From Elsinoe ampelina (taxonomy: Eukaryota): a stretch of 64,000 nt of DNA. The position numbers were made by a program, and so were the translations under genes. This document shows positions 50,937 to 60,437 of the stretch, in pieces. The DNA lies in NCBI GenBank assembly GCA_010093995.1, contig ML992502.1, positions 1,832,312 through 1,896,311 on the forward strand. The letters are read 5' to 3'. The stretch's first letter is position 1. Each line of letters begins with the position of its first letter. Below the pieces are notes generated by a model. That model had not been told where the DNA came from and did no database searches. It saw nothing but the letters and a program-made list of their open reading frames with translations.

Positions 50937-51550
50937 AGGAGGATCATATTGGTAGAATTGGACAGCAGCAAACTTCAATCAGACCTCTCCACTCGCAAAA
51001 GTTTGGGTCCCTTTTCCGTAACTCGAAATGTATAGCTTATTGCAATAGCTATTACGACACGAGAACTCGATTAAGAGATCTGGTAATTATAGGCGAAGCT
51101 AATAACTACTAGAACTATCTATAAGCCTGATTTAAGGCTTATAACTACAGTGTTGACGGAGTTGTAGGTATAGCAAGTCAATACTCAGCCGAGATAGTGT
51201 TCGGATGTGTTGGTTGAGCGTGACCACATCCTCGCTTAATGTGAGGTACTCGAGTAGACAGTCTCTACCTTGTCTTGCAAAATCGTTCCATGAATGATCT
51301 CGATATGACTCTTTCCCAGTCATCATTAACTTCAATGTTTCTCAACTGGGTGTGGCCAAGTCGCTTCCAGAACGACCGTTGCGCTGAGCTGCAGGGATCC
51401 GCCGGAACTTTGCACCGTTTAGAAAACGCTCCCATCACATTCCTCCGGCACTATCTCCCTGTCCAAGGCCGGTAAATCTCCTTCGCGTCGCATGTTCAGC
51501 AAGAGATCCCGAACGACAGCCTGCTTTGGCCCTTCAGATGAGCTGTGGGC

Positions 51551-54500
51551 ATGTCTATGCCTTGGAAGACGGCCAGAGTTGGGCCTGAGGACGGTCCACT
51601 GTGGAGAGCTGACCTGATTCGCCCACGGCCGGGTGATGATGGCAGATCAGCGGGGACAATCTCAACCCTCGGAGATGAAGCTGCCACATCATCACGATCT
51701 TCCCTCCGAGACGTAGGCATCCTTTCCTTCTTCGACGTAGATGCGCGACCGACAATTGCATTCGAGCTGGCCGTCGCGTCTGACAGCAGCTATGAATGCG
51801 GCCTTCAGGTCTACGAGAATGCAATCTTCCGGCGGTGCTATCCAGATGAGCGGCGACGACTGGCCTTCTTGAGCGATGCGAAGATCAAAGTCCACAAAGC
51901 TGGCAACACATCCCAATCCTTCCCCATCATCGTTCAAGGACGGCCATGCACATGCACCCTCGCCACAAGCAAATGGCTTGTGGTAGGATGGAATACGCCT
52001 GCGGACGACCGCAACATTCCTCACGCTGAAATCCTGCCACCGCGTGTTATTCGGTCTCTGGCGGGCGATTCGGTGACGAGCCCATTCCAGGTCAAATCCG
52101 AGTTCGAAGAGGAGCCATGGAAGAGAGGAGCAGATCTTCTCGGCTGGACGCGATTCCCCAATTTCATCGTCACTCCTCATATGAAGCGCGTATTGGAATA
52201 CCCTTGGCATCAAACATCTATGGGCCCCATGGAATCCTGGTCAACCGTCTGTAAGCTCTCAGTATCGGCGATGATTCTGAATCCGGATCCGAGAGCCATG
52301 TACTGGGGTCCAGAATTCACAACAATTTACAACGAGCACTGTATTCCCATTTTCGCCCAGAAGAACTCATTCGTCCTTGGTAGTTCACCTGCAACTGCAT
52401 GGCCGGAGACGTGGCATATAGCAGAGCCTATGTTCTTGAAGGCAATGTATGAGGGCAAAGCCTCCAAGGTTCAGGGAGTTCAAGCCTTCCTGATGAGGAA
52501 CGGCACCGAAGCACTCGAAGAGACGTTCTTCGATTCTACCTTCTTACCGATACCCGGCGTTGATGGTGGTAGTAACGGTGTACTCAATCAATTCTCAGAG
52601 ACCACAGATCAGGTCATCGAGAAACGCCAACAAGCCGTGATCAATGGAGTCAATAGTCGAGCATGGAATGCCCAGAGCGTTACCGAATACTGGACTGTAG
52701 CCATGGAGCCGCTGAACGACGAGCCCGCAGACATCCCGTATGCATTACTAATCACACCCACGGCTGTTGTCCTGCCACGCGCCTTTCCCGGAGAGCATAT
52801 GCACTACCACCTTCAACACATGATTGGTTTCCCGAAGTCACCTTTGAGAACAGACAGACCGTTCTCGCTGGATGGGCTCGATCATCCCGATGATCCAATC
52901 ATCAATGTGATCAGACAAGCTCACAACAGGAATGACGAGATTTCATTCTTGAATCGAGCCGACGGAACGTTACCAGATGCGCTGCACCACGCAGTCTCAG
53001 ATCGTGGCTTCGGTGACACAATTACGGCTGCGGCTGTCTTGCCAATCCCAAGCATGCAGGATGGTCCACCTGTGGGATTCGTTGTCATGGGCCTGAACCC
53101 TCGGAGACCCGTCGACACACGATCAAAGACCTTTGTGCAAGTGCTCCGGGATAGTCTGACAAAGGCAGCAGCTACCACAACACTGCCTAGTGCCGCGAGA
53201 AACCGGGAAAGACAATTGGAAGAATTGCACCAGTCTCTGCTACAGCGCCTTCACCAATCGACCCTAGAATCGGAACGTCACAAAGCACGCTTTGAACGAA
53301 TGGCTGGATCTGCGCCTGTAGGCATGTTCATGTTCAGTGCGGATGGCAAGACTCCCATATACGCTAACGAGGAGTACTACAATATGCTAGACCTGACAAA
53401 AGAGGAACTGGAACAGGAAGGTGGGTGGGCCCACAAGATCCACCGCGATGATGTTGTCCGTGTGGTAAACGCTTTCGAGAAAGTCATCGCCGATTTTACA
53501 CCGATCACAATCGAGTTCCAGACCAAGAAGGATTATCAGGTCATTGACCAGGTGACTGGACATCCAATTTCAGCGCCACAGCACATTGTTGCCACTTGTA
53601 TTCCAGAGTTTGACGAAGATGGCACTTGCCTCAACCTTCAGGGATGGCTGTATAACGTTTCTCACGATCGTTTTGCGCAGAGACTACTCAATTCGCGACT
53701 GGACGAAGTTACTGCATCGAAGCAGAACGCCGAGAACTTTATCGATATGGTCAGTCATGAGATGAGGAATCCACTGAGCGCTATTCTGCAGTCCGCGGAC
53801 GGTATAGTGTCGATGCTTGAACAATCAGAGCATAAGGATGGCAGCAAAGCACTGAGGTTGACTGAGGACACTGCTGAATCTGTCCTTGATGCATCGGAAA
53901 CCATCATACTATGCGCTCAGCACCAGAAGCGTATCGGTAAGATTCATGTAGCATTGGCCAAGACTCTTGGACTAACATGTGGTAGTTGATGATATTCTCA
54001 CCTTATCAAAGCTTGATGCTAATCTTCTTGTTATCGCCCCGGACAAGGGCTCGCCGGCTCACCTGTTGCGTCAAGCTTTGAAGATGTTTGAGTCTCAGCT
54101 AGCTCGTGCGGAGATCCGTGCCTCTGTTGAGGTCGAGCCATCGGTGTCTCTACTGGATATCGATTATGTCATGATGGACTCATCTCGAATTCTGCAGGTG
54201 GTCATCAATCTTCTCACTAATGCGATCAAGTTCACCCAGCATGCCAAGAAGCGAGCTATTGCTCTTTGCCTGGATGCGAGCCTCACCCAGCCGGGAACAT
54301 CAGACGTGCAGTACATCCCTCGGCGAGCATCTCGACCTCGACACAATTGGACGCTGGAGTGGGGCAACGGACAGGAGATCTATCTTTCCTTCATGGTGCG
54401 AGATACCGGCAAAGGCCTTACATCCGACGAAATGGCTACTTTGTTCCAACGTTTCAGTCAAGCCAGCCCCAAGACTTACAAAAAGTATGGTGGCAGTGGT

Positions 54501-55370
54501 CTTGGTCTCTTCATCTCCCGCGAGCTTACCGAACTCCAAGGCGGACAGATTGGCGTTAGCAGCGAAGCAGGCAAGGGTATTACCTTTGCCTTTTACGTTC
54601 TTGTGCGGCGGTGGATGCCCTGTACACCCATGAGTGACGGATCTAGCAGGCGATTCACAGATATCCACACGCCGACCATGCTCGAGAGCCCCGTCGCTTA
54701 CTCCCGGCGAGAAAGTAGCGCCATGTTCGACAGCACCGCCAGCTTAGCTAGTCTAGGGGAGCGAACATCACCCTTACCAAGTCCGGAGAAAGAGAAGGAG
54801 AAGAAGCTGCACGTCCTCATAGTCGAAGACAACGTCATCAACCAGAAAGTCATGGCAAAGCAGATCCGCGCCGCCGGCCACGAGGTCCACGTTGCGAATC
54901 ACGGTCTGGAAGCACTGCAATTCCTCAAACGTACCGCCTTCTGGGAAGGTACGCCGGTCTCACAGGAAGAACCAGACTACCTCAACCAAGGCGCCCCCAA
55001 GATCGTCGTAGAAGGCCATGTCGAACTCAGCGTCATCCTCATGGACCTCGAGATGCCCGTCCTCGATGGTCTCAGTTGCGTCAAGCAGATCCGGGAGATG
55101 GAAGCACGTGGCGAGATCAGAGGTCATGTACCGATCATTGCAGTCACTGCGAACGCGAGGAGTGAGCAGATCGCTGTCGCACTGGCGGCGGGAATGGATG
55201 AGGTGGTGACGAAGCCGTTCAGGATATGGCAGGTGTTGGAGAGGGCGAGGGGGCTGGTATGCAAAGAGGGATTTGGGCCACGGATGACGGGGAGGGGAAG
55301 GGAGGTGGTGAAGCCGGTGGGATTGGAGGAGGCGAGGATTGATAGTGTTTTGTCGGAGGGGAAGAAGTGA
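51551..55370 (+). CDS. Hybrid sensor histidine kinase (PAS/GAF-like inputs, HisKA, HATPase, receiver)
   Basis: H-box DMVSHEMRNPL, NLLTNAIKF, DTGKG, GGSGLGL, receiver VEDN/ILMDLEMP/TKP; intron ~53937-53984. Confidence 0.95.
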
Positions 55371-56024
55371 GACATTTGCAAAGGGAGGGAAAAAAGGAGG
55401 GTGGGGATAATTAATGATAATGATTGCTATGGATCACTTTGATGCTCAGGCCGCCGGCCATGGATGGTGTCTCTGGACTGCAACTGCTGACGAAAGGCCC
55501 GGGCGCTGCTCGTTTCAAAGCTAGGGCCTCGACCCTGTAATGCTCTGTGGAAAACAGTATCATGCCCAAATTGGGCGATACGACAACTACAATTCTGGAT
55601 CAGTGGGCAAGACCACCTACGGGTTCACAGCCACGTATTGTTTGGAATGCTGAAGTCATGTTCGGTCAAAGTTCAGGTACGTCGGTCTCACCCATTGCCA
55701 CTGCTGAGACTAGGCTATAGGTATAAGGCGAGGTCACTTCGATTCTACAATCATGGTGTTTTGGGGGCAGATGGTCTTTCCTGAGCTCGATGTGGGAGTC
55801 GTATATTGGTGTAGCTGATGGCATGGCATGTGGCACTTAAGCCGCTCTGATGGTAACCTTGTCTCAGCTCTGGAGGGACACCACAAACATGGTGCAATAC
55901 CTACAGCAATCATTCCTATGCCGCAAGGTAATGAATACCGGTCACTCAAGAAGGCTATTCGCCCCTCAAAAAGACACACGGCTGGTGGAGTAGTAAGCCT
56001 TGATAAAATGATCCGGCTTAAGAG

Positions 56025-57473
56025 ATGGAGCGACACTACTCGAATGACGATGACCTTGAACAATGCACGGTCGCTTTCCAAAATGACGGGTCGGTATGTT
56101 ATCAAGTTGGCATACAGCACAACAACGGTCCTGTGCACTACTGCAGCAGCAGCATATGTTCTTGCCAACACGACACGGAGACACTGTCAAAGAAGCAGCA
56201 AATGCTGGCATCTCTCTGGTTCAGTAATCTGCAAGAACGTGAGTTGAGCATCGCAACAGCACTCAAATCCACTTGCCAGTGGATTTTGGACAACAATCAT
56301 TTTCGAGACTGGCTCGCGAGTCCAGAGGAGAAGACAACCCTGTGGATCAAGTCAAAGCCCGGCGCGGGCAAGTCAACCATGATGCGATTCATCCTCGAAT
56401 ACCTCAAGAAGAACCATAAGGATTCTGCAATTTTAAGTTTCTTCTTCTACGCAAAGGGCGCAAAGATCGACCACAATGCTGAAGGACTCTATCGTGCTCT
56501 CGCCTTCCAGCTCATTTCCCAGACTCAAATCCTACCAGAAGGCCTGCTTCAGGATCGCGTCACCCTTGGTCACGCCGAATCTTTCCACTGGACTGTGCCA
56601 ACATTGAAGCATCTCCTAAAGACTGTCCTGGCACAAGCTCCTTGTCGCAAGGTCATCATACTCTCCGACGCTCTCGATGACTGCGATCGCAACCAGCTTG
56701 ATGACACTCTCTCGTTCCTTACAGAAGAGCTCGTCGAGATGATTGAGCCGACAGGCATCACTCTCCAGCTCTGCTTGTCCGCTCGCCATTATCCTCCTAT
56801 CGGCGTTGACCATGGCATTTGTATTGAGCTCGAACGTGAAGACGGGCACAATCAGGATATTCTGAGGTACGTCGATGCCAAGGTGACTATAGGCTCCAGT
56901 CTTCTGTCCGACGACATCAAGAAAAGCATCCGCGAACAAGCGAATGGGAGCTTCTTGTGGGTTGTACTCATCAGCCACATAGTTCTACGTGACTACAGCG
57001 AGGGCGATCTTCGGGAGCTTTCATCGTATTTCAAAACACTGCCTGCTGGTATGGAGATCATGCTCCGAGACGTCCTGTCTCGTGAGACCAGAGATCGATC
57101 CCGTCTGATTCTCTGCATTCGACAGATGCTGTTTGCCATTCAGCCACCGACTCTACAGGAGCTGTACCACTTCTTGGTTGAAGCAGAGTCTAACACCGGG
57201 TCAGCACAACACTCCGCCGAAGCTGATGGCGATCAAATGATGCAGAAATTCGTGGTGAACGCCTCGAACGGTCTTGTCGAATGCAAAGATGGGATCGTAC
57301 ATTTCATTCACGGGGCGGTCCGAGACTTCCTTCTCCACAACCTGTCCTTACTTGACTACGAATGGTACATGCCCAACTTGCTGAGGGCGTTGATCCATAG
57401 CCGATTGCGCAACAGCCGTCTCGTTCGCCGCCAGGTGATTGGTCGTGGTCACACAAAGCAGTCGTCAGCATGA
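56025..57473 (+). CDS. Fungal NLR-type NACHT protein with short N-terminal amyloid-like motif and no C-terminal repeats
   Basis: TCQWIL..F.DW, WIKSKPGAGKST (Walker A), FFF, DALDDC (Walker B), SARHYP, ANGSFLWV.L, SNGLVE..VHFIHGAVRDFL. Confidence 0.88.
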   Translation: MERHYSNDDDLEQCTVAFQNDGSVCYQVGIQHNNGPVHYCSSSICSCQHDTETLSKKQQMLASLWFSNLQERELSIATALKSTCQWILDNNHFRDWLASPEEKTTLWIKSKPGAGKSTMMRFILEYLKKNHKDSAILSFFFYAKGAKIDHNAEGLYRALAFQLISQTQILPEGLLQDRVTLGHAESFHWTVPTLKHLLKTVLAQAPCRKVIILSDALDDCDRNQLDDTLSFLTEELVEMIEPTGITLQLCLSARHYPPIGVDHGICIELEREDGHNQDILRYVDAKVTIGSSLLSDDIKKSIREQANGSFLWVVLISHIVLRDYSEGDLRELSSYFKTLPAGMEIMLRDVLSRETRDRSRLILCIRQMLFAIQPPTLQELYHFLVEAESNTGSAQHSAEADGDQMMQKFVVNASNGLVECKDGIVHFIHGAVRDFLLHNLSLLDYEWYMPNLLRALIHSRLRNSRLVRRQVIGRGHTKQSSA

Positions 57474-58338
57474 TGCAGATGATTTGTCGCGGCTAGGTCA
57501 TCAGAGACATGTGCGGCCTGACGGCCACGGCCATGCGCACCTTCACCGCGACCCTGGGCGCTGCTCACGTTTGGTGCTCCTGATGGGAAAGAGTTTCGAC
57601 CCCCTTTGGCTTGCACCATCTTTGAACCTACCGAGCATAAGCAGCATCGATGGAGAAGTTGCAAGGTTATGTGGTACCGAGGCCATTCCAAGAGACGACA
57701 TTCAAACATGGGTGGAGGCGGGCGGCGGCACAGTGCCGATTGAAAAGGGCTCGATAGGCGTGGAAAGTCGTATTGGAGCAACGGCCGCCGATGATCACTA
57801 GGCGCAGGCACATCTTGACATTGCCCTCTGTTCGCCCGCAACACCAGGACATTTGATATGCGAATATTGAAGATGATGTTTCATGACACCTGTGCCACCT
57901 GCGAGAAGAGGCCGAGAGCATCGCTAGGTAGAAGACTCGTAATTCCAAGCGAATGGATTTAGGGGAATGTACGTCCCAATGTGTCATTGAATTCATTGCC
58001 TTGTCGAGACTGTGAACATGTGGGAGGGAGAGCCGGAGTACATCGTGAGGCTGTAATGACAATGGTATCCAAATGTAGCACATTGTTTCAGTTGCAGCAA
58101 GCCTAGCAGAAGCCCAACGACGTTCTTTGTGGGACATTCCCAGTATACTCGACTTCGTAACATCGCGATTTGTCCTAGCAACACATGCTACTGATGCCTT
58201 GCAGTGCGGCGTCGTGCCGTGCGGCTGAGCTATGGACAATGCAGTTCAGCCGCACGGCGATTGGTTCAGAGTCGACTGGGATCATCGCTTCCTTTTCCTT
58301 TCGCCACCTGTGACCAGTCTATTGCACACTTCGTGGAC

Positions 58339-59421
58339 ATGCGACACCAGGACTATCATGTTGGCTGGATCTGTGCGCTCGCGACTGAGCTGGCGGCAGC
58401 AATTTCAATGCTTGATGAAGAGCACGAACCACTCGATCAGTTTCCTGGGGACGACAATAGCTACAAATGCGGGAGGATTGGCCGTCACAACGTAGTGATC
58501 GCTTGTCTCCCTGCTGGTGTCTATGGCACCACTTCGGCGGCGAACGTGGCGGGCGACATGATGCGGTCATTCCCGGGAGTTCGGATTGGATTGATGGTGG
58601 GTGTCGGTGGAGGCATCCCCACACGCAAAACCGATATTCGATTGGGTGACATCGTTGTAGGCAGGCCGACTGACACCGCAGGCGGTGTAGTGCAATTCGA
58701 TATGGGTAGAGTACGACCCGGTGGTTTTCTGCAGCCCACTGGCATGCTGAATCGACCACCTGATATCCTCCTCAACGCCCTGAACACTCTCATGGCCAAT
58801 CACCAATTAAGGGGTTCCCGTATACCTGCGATATTGCGAGAGTCTGCGGCCAACAACTCAAGGTGGCGACGAGCCAGTGCATACCCAGGCGCCAGCCAGG
58901 ATCGCCTCTTCCAGCACGACTACCACCATGTCGGGACTGACGGAGATTGTGAGAGTTGTGACCTCGATCAGCTCGTCCCCAGAAACGAGCGCGAAGATGC
59001 AGAGCCCGTTGTCCACTATGGGATCGTCGCTTCCGGTAACCAGGTCGTGAGAGACGGCGTCACTCGGGAGAAAGTCCGTCGGGAGCTGCGAGCAATGTGC
59101 TTCGAGATGGAAGCCGCCGGTCTTGTCAGCAACTTCCGTTGCCTAGTCATCCGCGGTATATGCGACTACTCGGACAGCCATAAAAACAAGGACTGGCAGC
59201 CATACGCTGCCGCAGTCGCTGCCGCGTGCGCAAAAGAGCTACTAGAATCAATCGCCCCTCAGCAGGCTGCACGCGTCCCGGAGTGGTCTGAAGGCAATCA
59301 TGTCAATGGTGGGGACCAATTTACCGTCAACAATTACGGTACTATAGGGAGTCAGGTCGGCAAGCAAACAAGTCATGGACCCATGTATTTTGGGACGGTC
59401 AACAATCATTACAGACAATAG
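58339..59421 (+). CDS. Stand-alone PNP_UDP_1 nucleoside phosphorylase effector with C-terminal N/Q/G-rich tail
   Basis: YHVGWICAL..E, IGRHNVVIACLP, SFPGVRIGLMVGVGGG, DIRLGD, VHYG.VASGN, CFEMEAAG, IRGICDYSDSHKNK.WQ.YAA; no NACHT follows. Confidence 0.95.
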   Translation: MRHQDYHVGWICALATELAAAISMLDEEHEPLDQFPGDDNSYKCGRIGRHNVVIACLPAGVYGTTSAANVAGDMMRSFPGVRIGLMVGVGGGIPTRKTDIRLGDIVVGRPTDTAGGVVQFDMGRVRPGGFLQPTGMLNRPPDILLNALNTLMANHQLRGSRIPAILRESAANNSRWRRASAYPGASQDRLFQHDYHHVGTDGDCESCDLDQLVPRNEREDAEPVVHYGIVASGNQVVRDGVTREKVRRELRAMCFEMEAAGLVSNFRCLVIRGICDYSDSHKNKDWQPYAAAVAAACAKELLESIAPQQAARVPEWSEGNHVNGGDQFTVNNYGTIGSQVGKQTSHGPMYFGTVNNHYRQ

Positions 59422-60437
59422 TATCACGACCACGAATGCGGGAACTTATTTCGCATCACTCATGAGACGGCAGCTGCCGAATGGACGGACAGCAGAGACG
59501 CGTGGGTTCGTACGCTAACGAAAATCGATGATATATGACTGAATGAAAGGGTGCTCGATGACTGAGCATCATCCATTGCCGACTCCTGACAGTGGACATG
59601 GTCCCATGTTCCTGATATGCCGATCGTGTGCCCCGACCTGCTGTAAATGAAGGTCGTTAGTTGAGAGCATAAACTAGGTAGATAGGATAGATTGATCTGC
59701 CGATAGCCGCAAGTTCCGAGCAGCCGAACCCATCTCCGTTCCAAAACGGGAGTGGAGCACGAGAAGCATTTTTCCTCCTTCCATCTCTCTCCGTCCTAAG
59801 ACTCTGTTGTCCACGATCCCATACAAATTGACAGGGATGACAGTCAAGCGAAGCAAAAGCTCTGCAGAAGCTTTGTCAGCGGGCGGTACTCAAGTACTCC
59901 TCCAAACCGCCCAGCAAAGTCTGATGACGACAAGCATTGCAGCAGCTCCTCTCATTGTTTCAGGGCCGAACCATACAAGGATTCTTGGCCTTCTGGAAGT
60001 CGCCGCGAACCCGCCGACGGAAGAAAAGGCCCTTTTTCGACCAATTATGTCCTGCATGAGGCCTTCAGCCTGTATAGCGACCCCATCCAGCCCTACAGCT
60101 AAGTATTTTAGTAACGCCGTATCCTGCTCCTCCACCAGACGCGTGTCCACCGTCCCGTTCGGTTGAACCACTCCCGCCTTCTCCCGGGCAGTTCTCATTT
60201 CCCTTTCTGCTCTGTGAAAGGATATCTAAGGTTTCATCTCAGGGCTTCAGAATGAGGAATCTGCGTTGCGTAATGCCAGCAGGGCAAGCGAGCTGTCCTG
60301 AAGCTCCAAGTCAAGTATAACTTTCTGCCCTCGTCCAACCCTTTCCTGTACCAGTCTTCACCAGATCTACATTCTTGACTTTCACTTCCGTCACTCCTTT
60401 GTCAGTTCCTCCCACTCGCAGGTCGAGCTTGCCCATC

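Follow-up and report, generated by a model that had tools for sequence, protein, structure and literature searches.

A NACHT protein and a neighbouring PNP_UDP nucleosidase of Elsinoe ampelina share a terminal motif and form a candidate fungal amyloid-signalling pair

We report that two neighbouring genes in a 64,000-nucleotide stretch of the Elsinoe ampelina genome (GenBank assembly GCA_010093995.1, contig ML992502.1, positions 1,832,312 to 1,896,311 of the forward strand; hereafter the window) encode a NACHT protein of the nucleotide-binding oligomerisation domain (NOD)-like receptor (NLR) type and a nucleosidase of the PNP_UDP superfamily, here called the effector, and that the two proteins have a short motif in common. 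The motif is placed near the N-terminus of the NLR and near the C-terminus of the effector, it is conserved among effector homologues, and the arrangement recurs in Elsinoe australis. Our analysis favours, with some reserve, the view that the two genes are in origin and design an NLR/effector pair of the fungal amyloid-signalling type, and we are less sure that the pair still fires in this genome, because a sensor is missing from the receptor. In such a pair the NACHT module would oligomerise and bring the N-terminal motifs together, these would adopt a cross-beta fold and template the tail of the nucleosidase, and the clustered enzyme would be switched on, with nucleotide degradation and growth arrest or death as the expected outcome. 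The system type and the pairing with a PNP_UDP effector are already known; only the motif family could be new.

The PNP_UDP gene is located downstream of the NLR gene in the same orientation, with a stop-to-start gap of 865 bp. Both open reading frames (ORFs), the two matching segments of 24 residues (24-mers; Table 1), their coordinates and their 8 identical positions were recovered as given in a preliminary description of this DNA, using the ORF list and direct reading of the sequence. Aligned without gaps, the 24-mers are identical at 8 of 24 positions with a BLOSUM62 sum of 42, and this is the best-scoring ungapped 24-mer pair across the two complete proteins. An equal or higher score was reached in 2 of 5000 shuffles when the N-terminal 80 residues of the NLR were compared with the shuffled C-terminal 70 residues of the effector, and in 7 of 1000 shuffles of the complete effector. 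Moreover, a profile hidden Markov model (HMM) based on six effector tails from other organisms, with the window effector left out, matches NLR residues 17-38 with 15.2 bits and an E-value of 0.0012 (in a set of 1488 sequences with 172,795 residues). The next-best score of this tail HMM among the 1323 six-frame ORFs of the window is 3.4 bits, and beyond the two copies the same scan revealed no other in the window. Scores like that of the NLR were also obtained for two bacterial repeat proteins in the set of 1488 sequences; these proteins had been recruited by an earlier profile that included the NLR. At the DNA level the two motif-coding segments are identical at just 37 of 72 nucleotides in register, which argues that the copies do not stem from a recent DNA copying or duplication event.

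The effector motif has the consensus FxFNN[HY]G[ST]VGxQ[VI]GxQTx[HN]GPxYFGTVNNH, and six of its columns (N, G, Q, G, Q and G) are invariant throughout the family, the NLR leader included. In the effector cores, G, N, Q, S and T together account for 58% of the residues and charged residues for 3.4%. A predicted complex of two copies of NLR residues 1-60 and two copies of the effector tail scored 0.00 in a run without controls, and counts neither for nor against an interaction. Directly after the NLR motif there is a cysteine-rich run, CSSSICSCQH (56142-56180, residues 40-52).

Effector homologues are numerous (7182 at E ≤ 1e-5), the best named ones being from Elsinoe batatas (65% identity), E. 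fawcettii and E. australis. The motif follows the domain in 7 of 120 PNP homologues among the matches listed (P0001, P0004, P0005, P0006, P0008, P0009 and P0010; where named, from E. batatas, E. fawcettii and E. australis), and every one of these effector-side instances comes after a PNP_UDP domain. Most other listed homologues stop shortly after the domain, and P0098 has a sigma motif instead. Across the seven motif-bearing homologues the mean pairwise identity per column is 0.60 in the catalytic domain, 0.22 in the linker, which also differs in length, 0.59 in the 33-column motif and 0.06 in the tails that follow it. In this alignment the effector motif is thus a conserved island between variable flanks, and since it is conserved as much as the catalytic domain, the data suggest continuing selection on the tail. 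Loss of the motif in homologues had been named beforehand as an outcome that would speak against a paired system, and the opposite was observed (0.59 against 0.22 in the linker). The motif is not at the very end of P0005, P0006 and P0009 (E. fawcettii and E. australis), where a charged, helix-like extension of 55-75 aa comes after it (e.g. ...KRLVQQRMDEHAQFRER...); this extension is absent from the window effector and from P0004, P0008 and P0010.

The arrangement is seen a second time in the E. australis gene model P0172 (TKX21888.1; 578 aa), in which residues 1-136 correspond to an NLR N-terminus and the last 442 residues to the PNP protein. The tail HMM matches residues 14-36 of P0172 (19.5 bits, i-E 5.6e-5), residues 75-132 align with residues 55-109 of the window NLR (36% identity, E 7e-11, BLASTP), and residues 103-132 match positions 2-28 of the 164 positions of Pfam NPHP3_N. 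As P0172 has a motif leader ahead of a PNP protein with the motif, the order and orientation of receptor motif and effector motif recur in a second species. The NLR leader of P0172 runs directly into the start methionine of the effector, with the NACHT body missing or skipped. The junction may be genuine, in which case a deletion or fusion would have produced a protein with the tag at each end, or it may be an artefact of annotation. Judged from these two sequences the receptor side is evolutionarily labile, without sensor repeats in E. ampelina and with only a stub in E. australis. Together with the seven effector homologues, the E. australis copy strengthens the earlier proposal of a receptor N-terminal motif matched by an effector C-terminal motif in adjacent, co-oriented genes.

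Residues 1-311 of the effector fold in an AlphaFold2 model (predicted template modelling score, pTM, 0.72), and residues 312-360 have a predicted local distance difference test (pLDDT) score of 24-35 and no secondary structure in the modelled monomer. The best Foldseek matches are MTA/SAH nucleosidases (MTAN) and futalosine hydrolase, with TM-scores (target) of approximately 0.7 and E-values down to 7e-12. In a phmmer alignment EMEAAG and RGICDYSD of the effector are opposite EMEGAS and RSISDNAD of MTAN, and E17, E256-M257-E258 and D276 are invariant in the seven effector homologues; we take the acidic residues of EME and ICD to be those that contact the ribose and the base, as in MTAN. Two PADLOC models match the effector, PDC-M60C and 'Effector, PN-superfamily', and among its top homologues are P0022, P0052, P0055 and P0078, in which a PNP domain is joined to a NACHT or ankyrin protein. 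Domains of this kind are found at the N-terminal end of many fungal NLRs as fusions. A search of the ESM Atlas with the effector tail gave no usable feature match, and all structural rows were below a TM-score of 0.5. According to Rousset et al. (2023, bioRxiv 10.1101/2023.01.24.525353), the PNP domain of the NLR-like protein NLRN of Hyaloscypha variabilis is an ATP nucleosidase in vitro, releases adenine and is toxic in Escherichia coli. The effector has an MTAN-like fold and is a putative adenine nucleosidase of the PNP_UDP superfamily, probably one that acts on ATP and dATP, the substrate assignment following from the family because a fungal NLR-like PNP domain splits ATP.

On the receptor side, Pfam finds no folded N-terminal domain in NLR residues 1-80, where the only match is a sub-threshold one to CxC2 (E 0.011), and an NLR that has the motif in a leader instead of a folded effector domain, as first described, was thus recovered. 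The short motif, of ~24-30 aa, rich in G, N, Q and T and poor in charged residues, lies within the first ~50 residues and NACHT starts at residue 83, which is the general layout of a receptor in an amyloid pair. The remaining general features of such pairs are also present: the effector motif is C-terminal in a separate protein, the genes are neighbours, and on the effector side the motif is conserved with variable flanks in the seven homologues. The NLR aligns with ankyrin-bearing homologues over residues ~42-462; the homologues continue into ankyrin (ANK) repeats, and the window ORF ends at residue 482. Other NLR homologues carry HET or PNP_UDP domains ahead of NACHT, the best homologue of similar length is only 34% identical, and the window motif is absent from 43 other NLR homologues. 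Several of these homologues bear, by eye, other short G/N-rich leaders, that of P0137 being PUASM-like, and it would seem from this that tag-type N-termini are common in the NACHT clade. Specifically, short leaders rich in G, N, Y and H were seen on the NACHT relatives P0131, P0133, P0134, P0137, P0141, P0145, P0150, P0151 and P0154, none of which was scored by the tail HMM. The leaders of P0145, P0150, P0151 and P0154 have ...HAGNVYNNHYH... in common, which by eye is like the distal FGTVNNH of the effector tail and which, again by eye, we take to resemble HET-s-type repeats.

Table 1. Positions of the two genes and of their parts in the window
Feature	Position	Strand	Description	Basis
NLR gene	56025..57473	+	uninterrupted ORF, 482 aa: motif leader and NACHT/NOD module, no C-terminal repeats	ORF list; Pfam NPHP3_N 9.6e-31
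NLR-side motif	56070..56141	+	residues 16-39, VAFQNDGSVCYQVGIQHNNGPVHY	effector-tail HMM match; 24-mer read directly
Pre-NACHT region	56187..56351	+	NLR residues 55-109, homologous to E. australis stub	BLASTP
NACHT (Pfam NPHP3_N) NTPase domain	56271..56786	+	NLR residues 83-254	Pfam
Walker A of NLR	56361-56378	+	GAGKST	sequence read directly
Intergenic spacer	57474..58338	.	865 bp, no repeat-domain remnant	stop-to-stop ORFs and Pfam
Effector gene	58339..59421	+	uninterrupted ORF, 360 aa: PNP_UDP domain, linker and motif	ORF list; Pfam PNP_UDP_1 4.2e-11
Predicted folded nucleosidase domain	58339..59271	+	effector residues 1-311	AlphaFold2 model; Foldseek
Variable linker	59245..59313	+	effector residues 303-325	alignment of 7 homologues
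Effector-side motif island	59314..59412	+	effector residues 326-358, within residues 312-360 of low pLDDT	alignment of 7 homologues
Effector 24-mer	59320-59391	+	effector residues 328-351, FTVNNYGTIGSQVGKQTSHGPMYF	read directly

Several observations weigh against an amyloid-signalling pair. The Pfam amyloid-motif models do not match the motif, a proline is conserved within it, and the core is incomplete in both copies on the receptor side (window NLR, CYQVG; E. australis, ANLAG). Receptor-side instances number only two, the window NLR and the P0172 stub; for E. batatas and E. fawcettii, profile and word-index searches brought up no NLR with the motif. In the published NLR list of another E. 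australis assembly no NLR accession adjoins the effector PSK59456.1, the nearest being PSK59444.1, which, as far as accession lists go, fits a real loss of NACHT in that species. Finally, no sensor repeats (ANK, TPR or WD) were detected in the NLR ORF or downstream of it, so that the receptor departs from the usual tripartite build and the step from ligand to oligomerisation has no visible input.

The last of these points bears on the alternative that fares best, although we regard it as rather unlikely: that the pair is the decaying relic of a once-working module, whose receptor, having lost the sensor, has ceased to signal in this genome and whose effector is either kept for another trigger or disappearing. 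The NLR stops ~20 residues past the NOD homology, where its homologues enter ankyrin repeats, and no remnants follow downstream; Pfam at E ≤ 1 gave no repeat families in the spacer (eight ORFs of both strands between 57439 and 58245). Nevertheless both ORFs are intact, Walker A is present, and the NOD module aligns end to end. The stub in E. australis and the failure to find receptors for E. batatas and E. fawcettii would also fit decay, whereas conservation of the effector motif on a level with the catalytic domain over seven homologues would not, nor would the finding that contigs of four sequencing runs differ by one synonymous and one missense change only. Moreover, NACHT alone and NACHT-WD40 are likewise the annotations given to receptors of published PUASM pairs (PMC9815663).

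A second alternative is that the shared motif serves as a homotypic interaction tag without amyloid, for instance as a short adaptor or dimerisation strand or as a tail that keeps the enzyme inhibited until the NLR leader displaces it. PNP_UDP-fold enzymes are oligomeric, and any clustering tag might suffice for them; in addition, the known amyloid-motif profiles fail to match, Gly-Pro is conserved in the motif, and on the receptor side the cores are imperfect. We nevertheless consider this alternative improbable, as composition, length, placement at the ends of both partners and disorder in the monomer are traits of published amyloid motifs, including those of PUASM, which form fibrils and prions (PMC9815663). 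Chance likeness of two low-complexity segments in functionally unrelated neighbouring genes is hardly credible, since the match, despite its 8 of 24 identities, the readiness of G/N/Q-rich segments to match each other more than average sequence does and a score reached in 7 of 1000 whole-effector shuffles, is placed at precisely the two expected ends, keeps all six family-invariant columns, was found by a profile without the window effector and has the same arrangement again in E. australis.

With respect to its surroundings, the amyloid-type candidate pair is located between a histidine kinase gene and a GH131 gene, and the other large ORFs of the window encode GH3, GH131, pectate-lyase-like, asparaginase, GDA1/CD39, Elongator subunit and hybrid histidine kinase proteins, i.e. 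ordinary fungal DNA. The hybrid histidine kinase (PAS, HATPase_c and receiver; 51542-55370) is split into two overlapping frames, 51542-53989 and 53976-55370, with an intron or a frameshift between them. Contigs of the four runs mentioned above (X3, X4, X5 and X7; two organism codes, A and B) span both ORFs without joints, and over 55900-59500 of the window the locus is present at an identity of at least 99%; the two single-base differences are 57075 C>T (L351L) and 58678 G>A (A114T). In all, 11 runs from four studies contain DNA of the locus, several of which are guessed to be RNA. The segment 57986-58317 is almost uncovered in these four runs, with separate contigs (of uncertain kind) ending near both genes, a pattern from which we draw no conclusion on transcription.

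Elsinoe and a few relatives are the only sources in which the motif was found, and its distribution thus appears to be narrow. Of the 10 matches at E ≤ 0.001 from an exhaustive profile search of 1.84 billion representatives, one was the window NLR, two were effector representatives and seven were bacterial repeat proteins. The latter, of the FNNDG-type beta-propeller or TPR kind, were judged by eye to be unrelated. A word-index profile search with a 46-aa alignment returned only its eight inputs among 821 candidates, and a metagenome scan with effector-tail patterns gave 94 pattern matches and no relatives by tblastn; the profile and word-index searches are weak for diverged receptor-side copies, which score just 15-20 bits. 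A literature search for Elsinoe and NACHT gave nothing beyond taxonomic monographs, and one for Elsinoe, NLR and amyloid gave no work on Elsinoe among the top matches. The name Elsinoe is likewise absent from the readable motif-pair tables of PMC9815663, and of the 27 rows on E. australis NLRs in the supplement of the same paper, the about 20 that were covered are all marked 'noasm'.

If the amyloid-signalling reading is true, the five catalogued families would be joined by a motif that belongs to one plant-pathogenic genus of the Dothideomycetes and is coupled to an effector that degrades nucleotides. With a tag of 24-30 aa and an enzyme of 360 aa, the pair would also be a compact test case for how cross-beta templating activates a soluble enzyme as opposed to a pore-former, a question left by the PUASM work. 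Moreover, a full NOD module, a stub and no receptor found, over related species, would amount to a small natural experiment on how receptor-effector pairs come apart. The picture of fungal immunity would remain unchanged, as the design principle is already published.

The five recognised families of fungal amyloid signalling are HRAM, sigma, PP and PUASM 1-2 (PMC12261475), and PNP_UDP effectors whose C-terminal motif is matched by NLR N-termini have been published for PUASM 1-2, sigma and HRAM3-like motifs (PMC9815663; PMC12261475). The suggestion of an undescribed motif-effector pairing therefore stands in part: the motif family is possibly new, and the coupling of an amyloid motif to PNP_UDP is not. 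For comparison with these families, pattern tests were run on nine motif instances, and Pfam motif scans on eight segments at E ≤ 10, plus the two window tails. None of the nine instances has the PP core NxGxQxGxN or the PUASM pattern FxGxGxQxxGxGxF (both patterns from PMC9815663), which agrees with the earlier remark that the spacing is unlike that of PP and PUASM. The RHIM core G[IV]Q[IV]G (PMC7885112) is also absent from all nine, the residue before Q being S, N or T; a relaxed GxQxG is present in six of nine. Among the Pfam models, PP (PF17046) matched none of the eight segments or the two window tails at E ≤ 10, in a scan without a PP positive control and with HMMER filters that drop most matches above ~0.1. 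Sigma (PF17106) matched none of the eight segments, with the positive control P0098 scoring 28.7 bits; HET-s/HRAM (PF11558), without an HRAM positive control, and RHIM matched none of them either.

The motif itself resembles that of the PP/RHIM-like system PNT1-HELLP-SBP (PF17046; PMC5485727, PMC7885112), with which it has in common a central G-x-Q-phi-G, flanking polar ladder residues and glycines, a length of ~20-30 aa and the placement at receptor N-terminus and effector C-terminus. Unlike PP, the present motif has T/S and Q in place of the flanking N, followed by a conserved GPxYFGTVNNH extension. It is probably a distinct relative of the PP/RHIM-type tags, either a new family or a sub-family, where PF01048_015 enters the comparison by its positions only. 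More tentatively, and with more doubt than conviction on our side, it could represent a sixth family of fungal amyloid signalling motifs that is confined to Elsinoe and close relatives, combines a PP/RHIM-like GxQxG centre with a GPxYFGTVNNH extension of its own and is devoted to an ATP-nucleosidase effector, with a receptor free to shrink: to a NOD-only protein here, and in E. australis to a stub that is possibly translated with the effector as one double-tagged, self-priming protein.

In gene layout, and in the exclusive association of the motif with a PNP_UDP effector in all seven effector-side instances, the pair is like the PUASM pairs, e.g. Colletotrichum gloeosporioides EQB50682.1/EQB50683.1 (Wojciechowski et al. 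2022, PMC9815663), which likewise combine a PNP_UDP effector that has a C-terminal motif with a neighbouring NACHT NLR that has the motif, in single copy, in a short N-terminus. PUASM receptors are annotated as NACHT alone or NACHT-WD40, and the window NLR is likewise NACHT alone; fibril formation has been described for PUASM peptides, and prion behaviour in Podospora for a GFP fusion (PMC9815663). PUASM has been reported mainly from Sordariomycetes (PMC9815663), whereas the present motif is found in Elsinoe, a member of the Dothideomycetes. As the NLR homologue P0137 has a PUASM-like leader, PUASM and the present motif would be distinct tags on related NACHT proteins. PF01048_015, or 'PUASM 2' (four pairs, e.g. 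CCT68202.1/CCT68203.1; PMC9815663, PMC12261475), is also rare, PNP_UDP-only and similarly positioned (receptor ~8-28, effector ~369-396), a comparison made by positions alone; it may be a different motif because, as weak evidence, no Fusarium or Torrubiella protein appeared in the profile searches. Pairs of sigma and PNP_UDP, e.g. Colletotrichum higginsianum CCF38036.1/CCF38037.1 (tables of PMC9815663), and P0098 share the effector family and the two-gene logic with the present pair, and here PF17106 matches no segment. Finally, Cap17/DtcC-type immune ATP nucleosidases and NLRN of H. variabilis (Rousset et al. 2023) likewise use a PNP_UDP-superfamily domain as an immune effector, and the identity between the window PNP domain and its counterparts in fusions with fungal NACHT proteins is ~55%; unlike in NLRN, however, the PNP domain in the window is not fused to its receptor and belongs to a separate protein with a tail motif.

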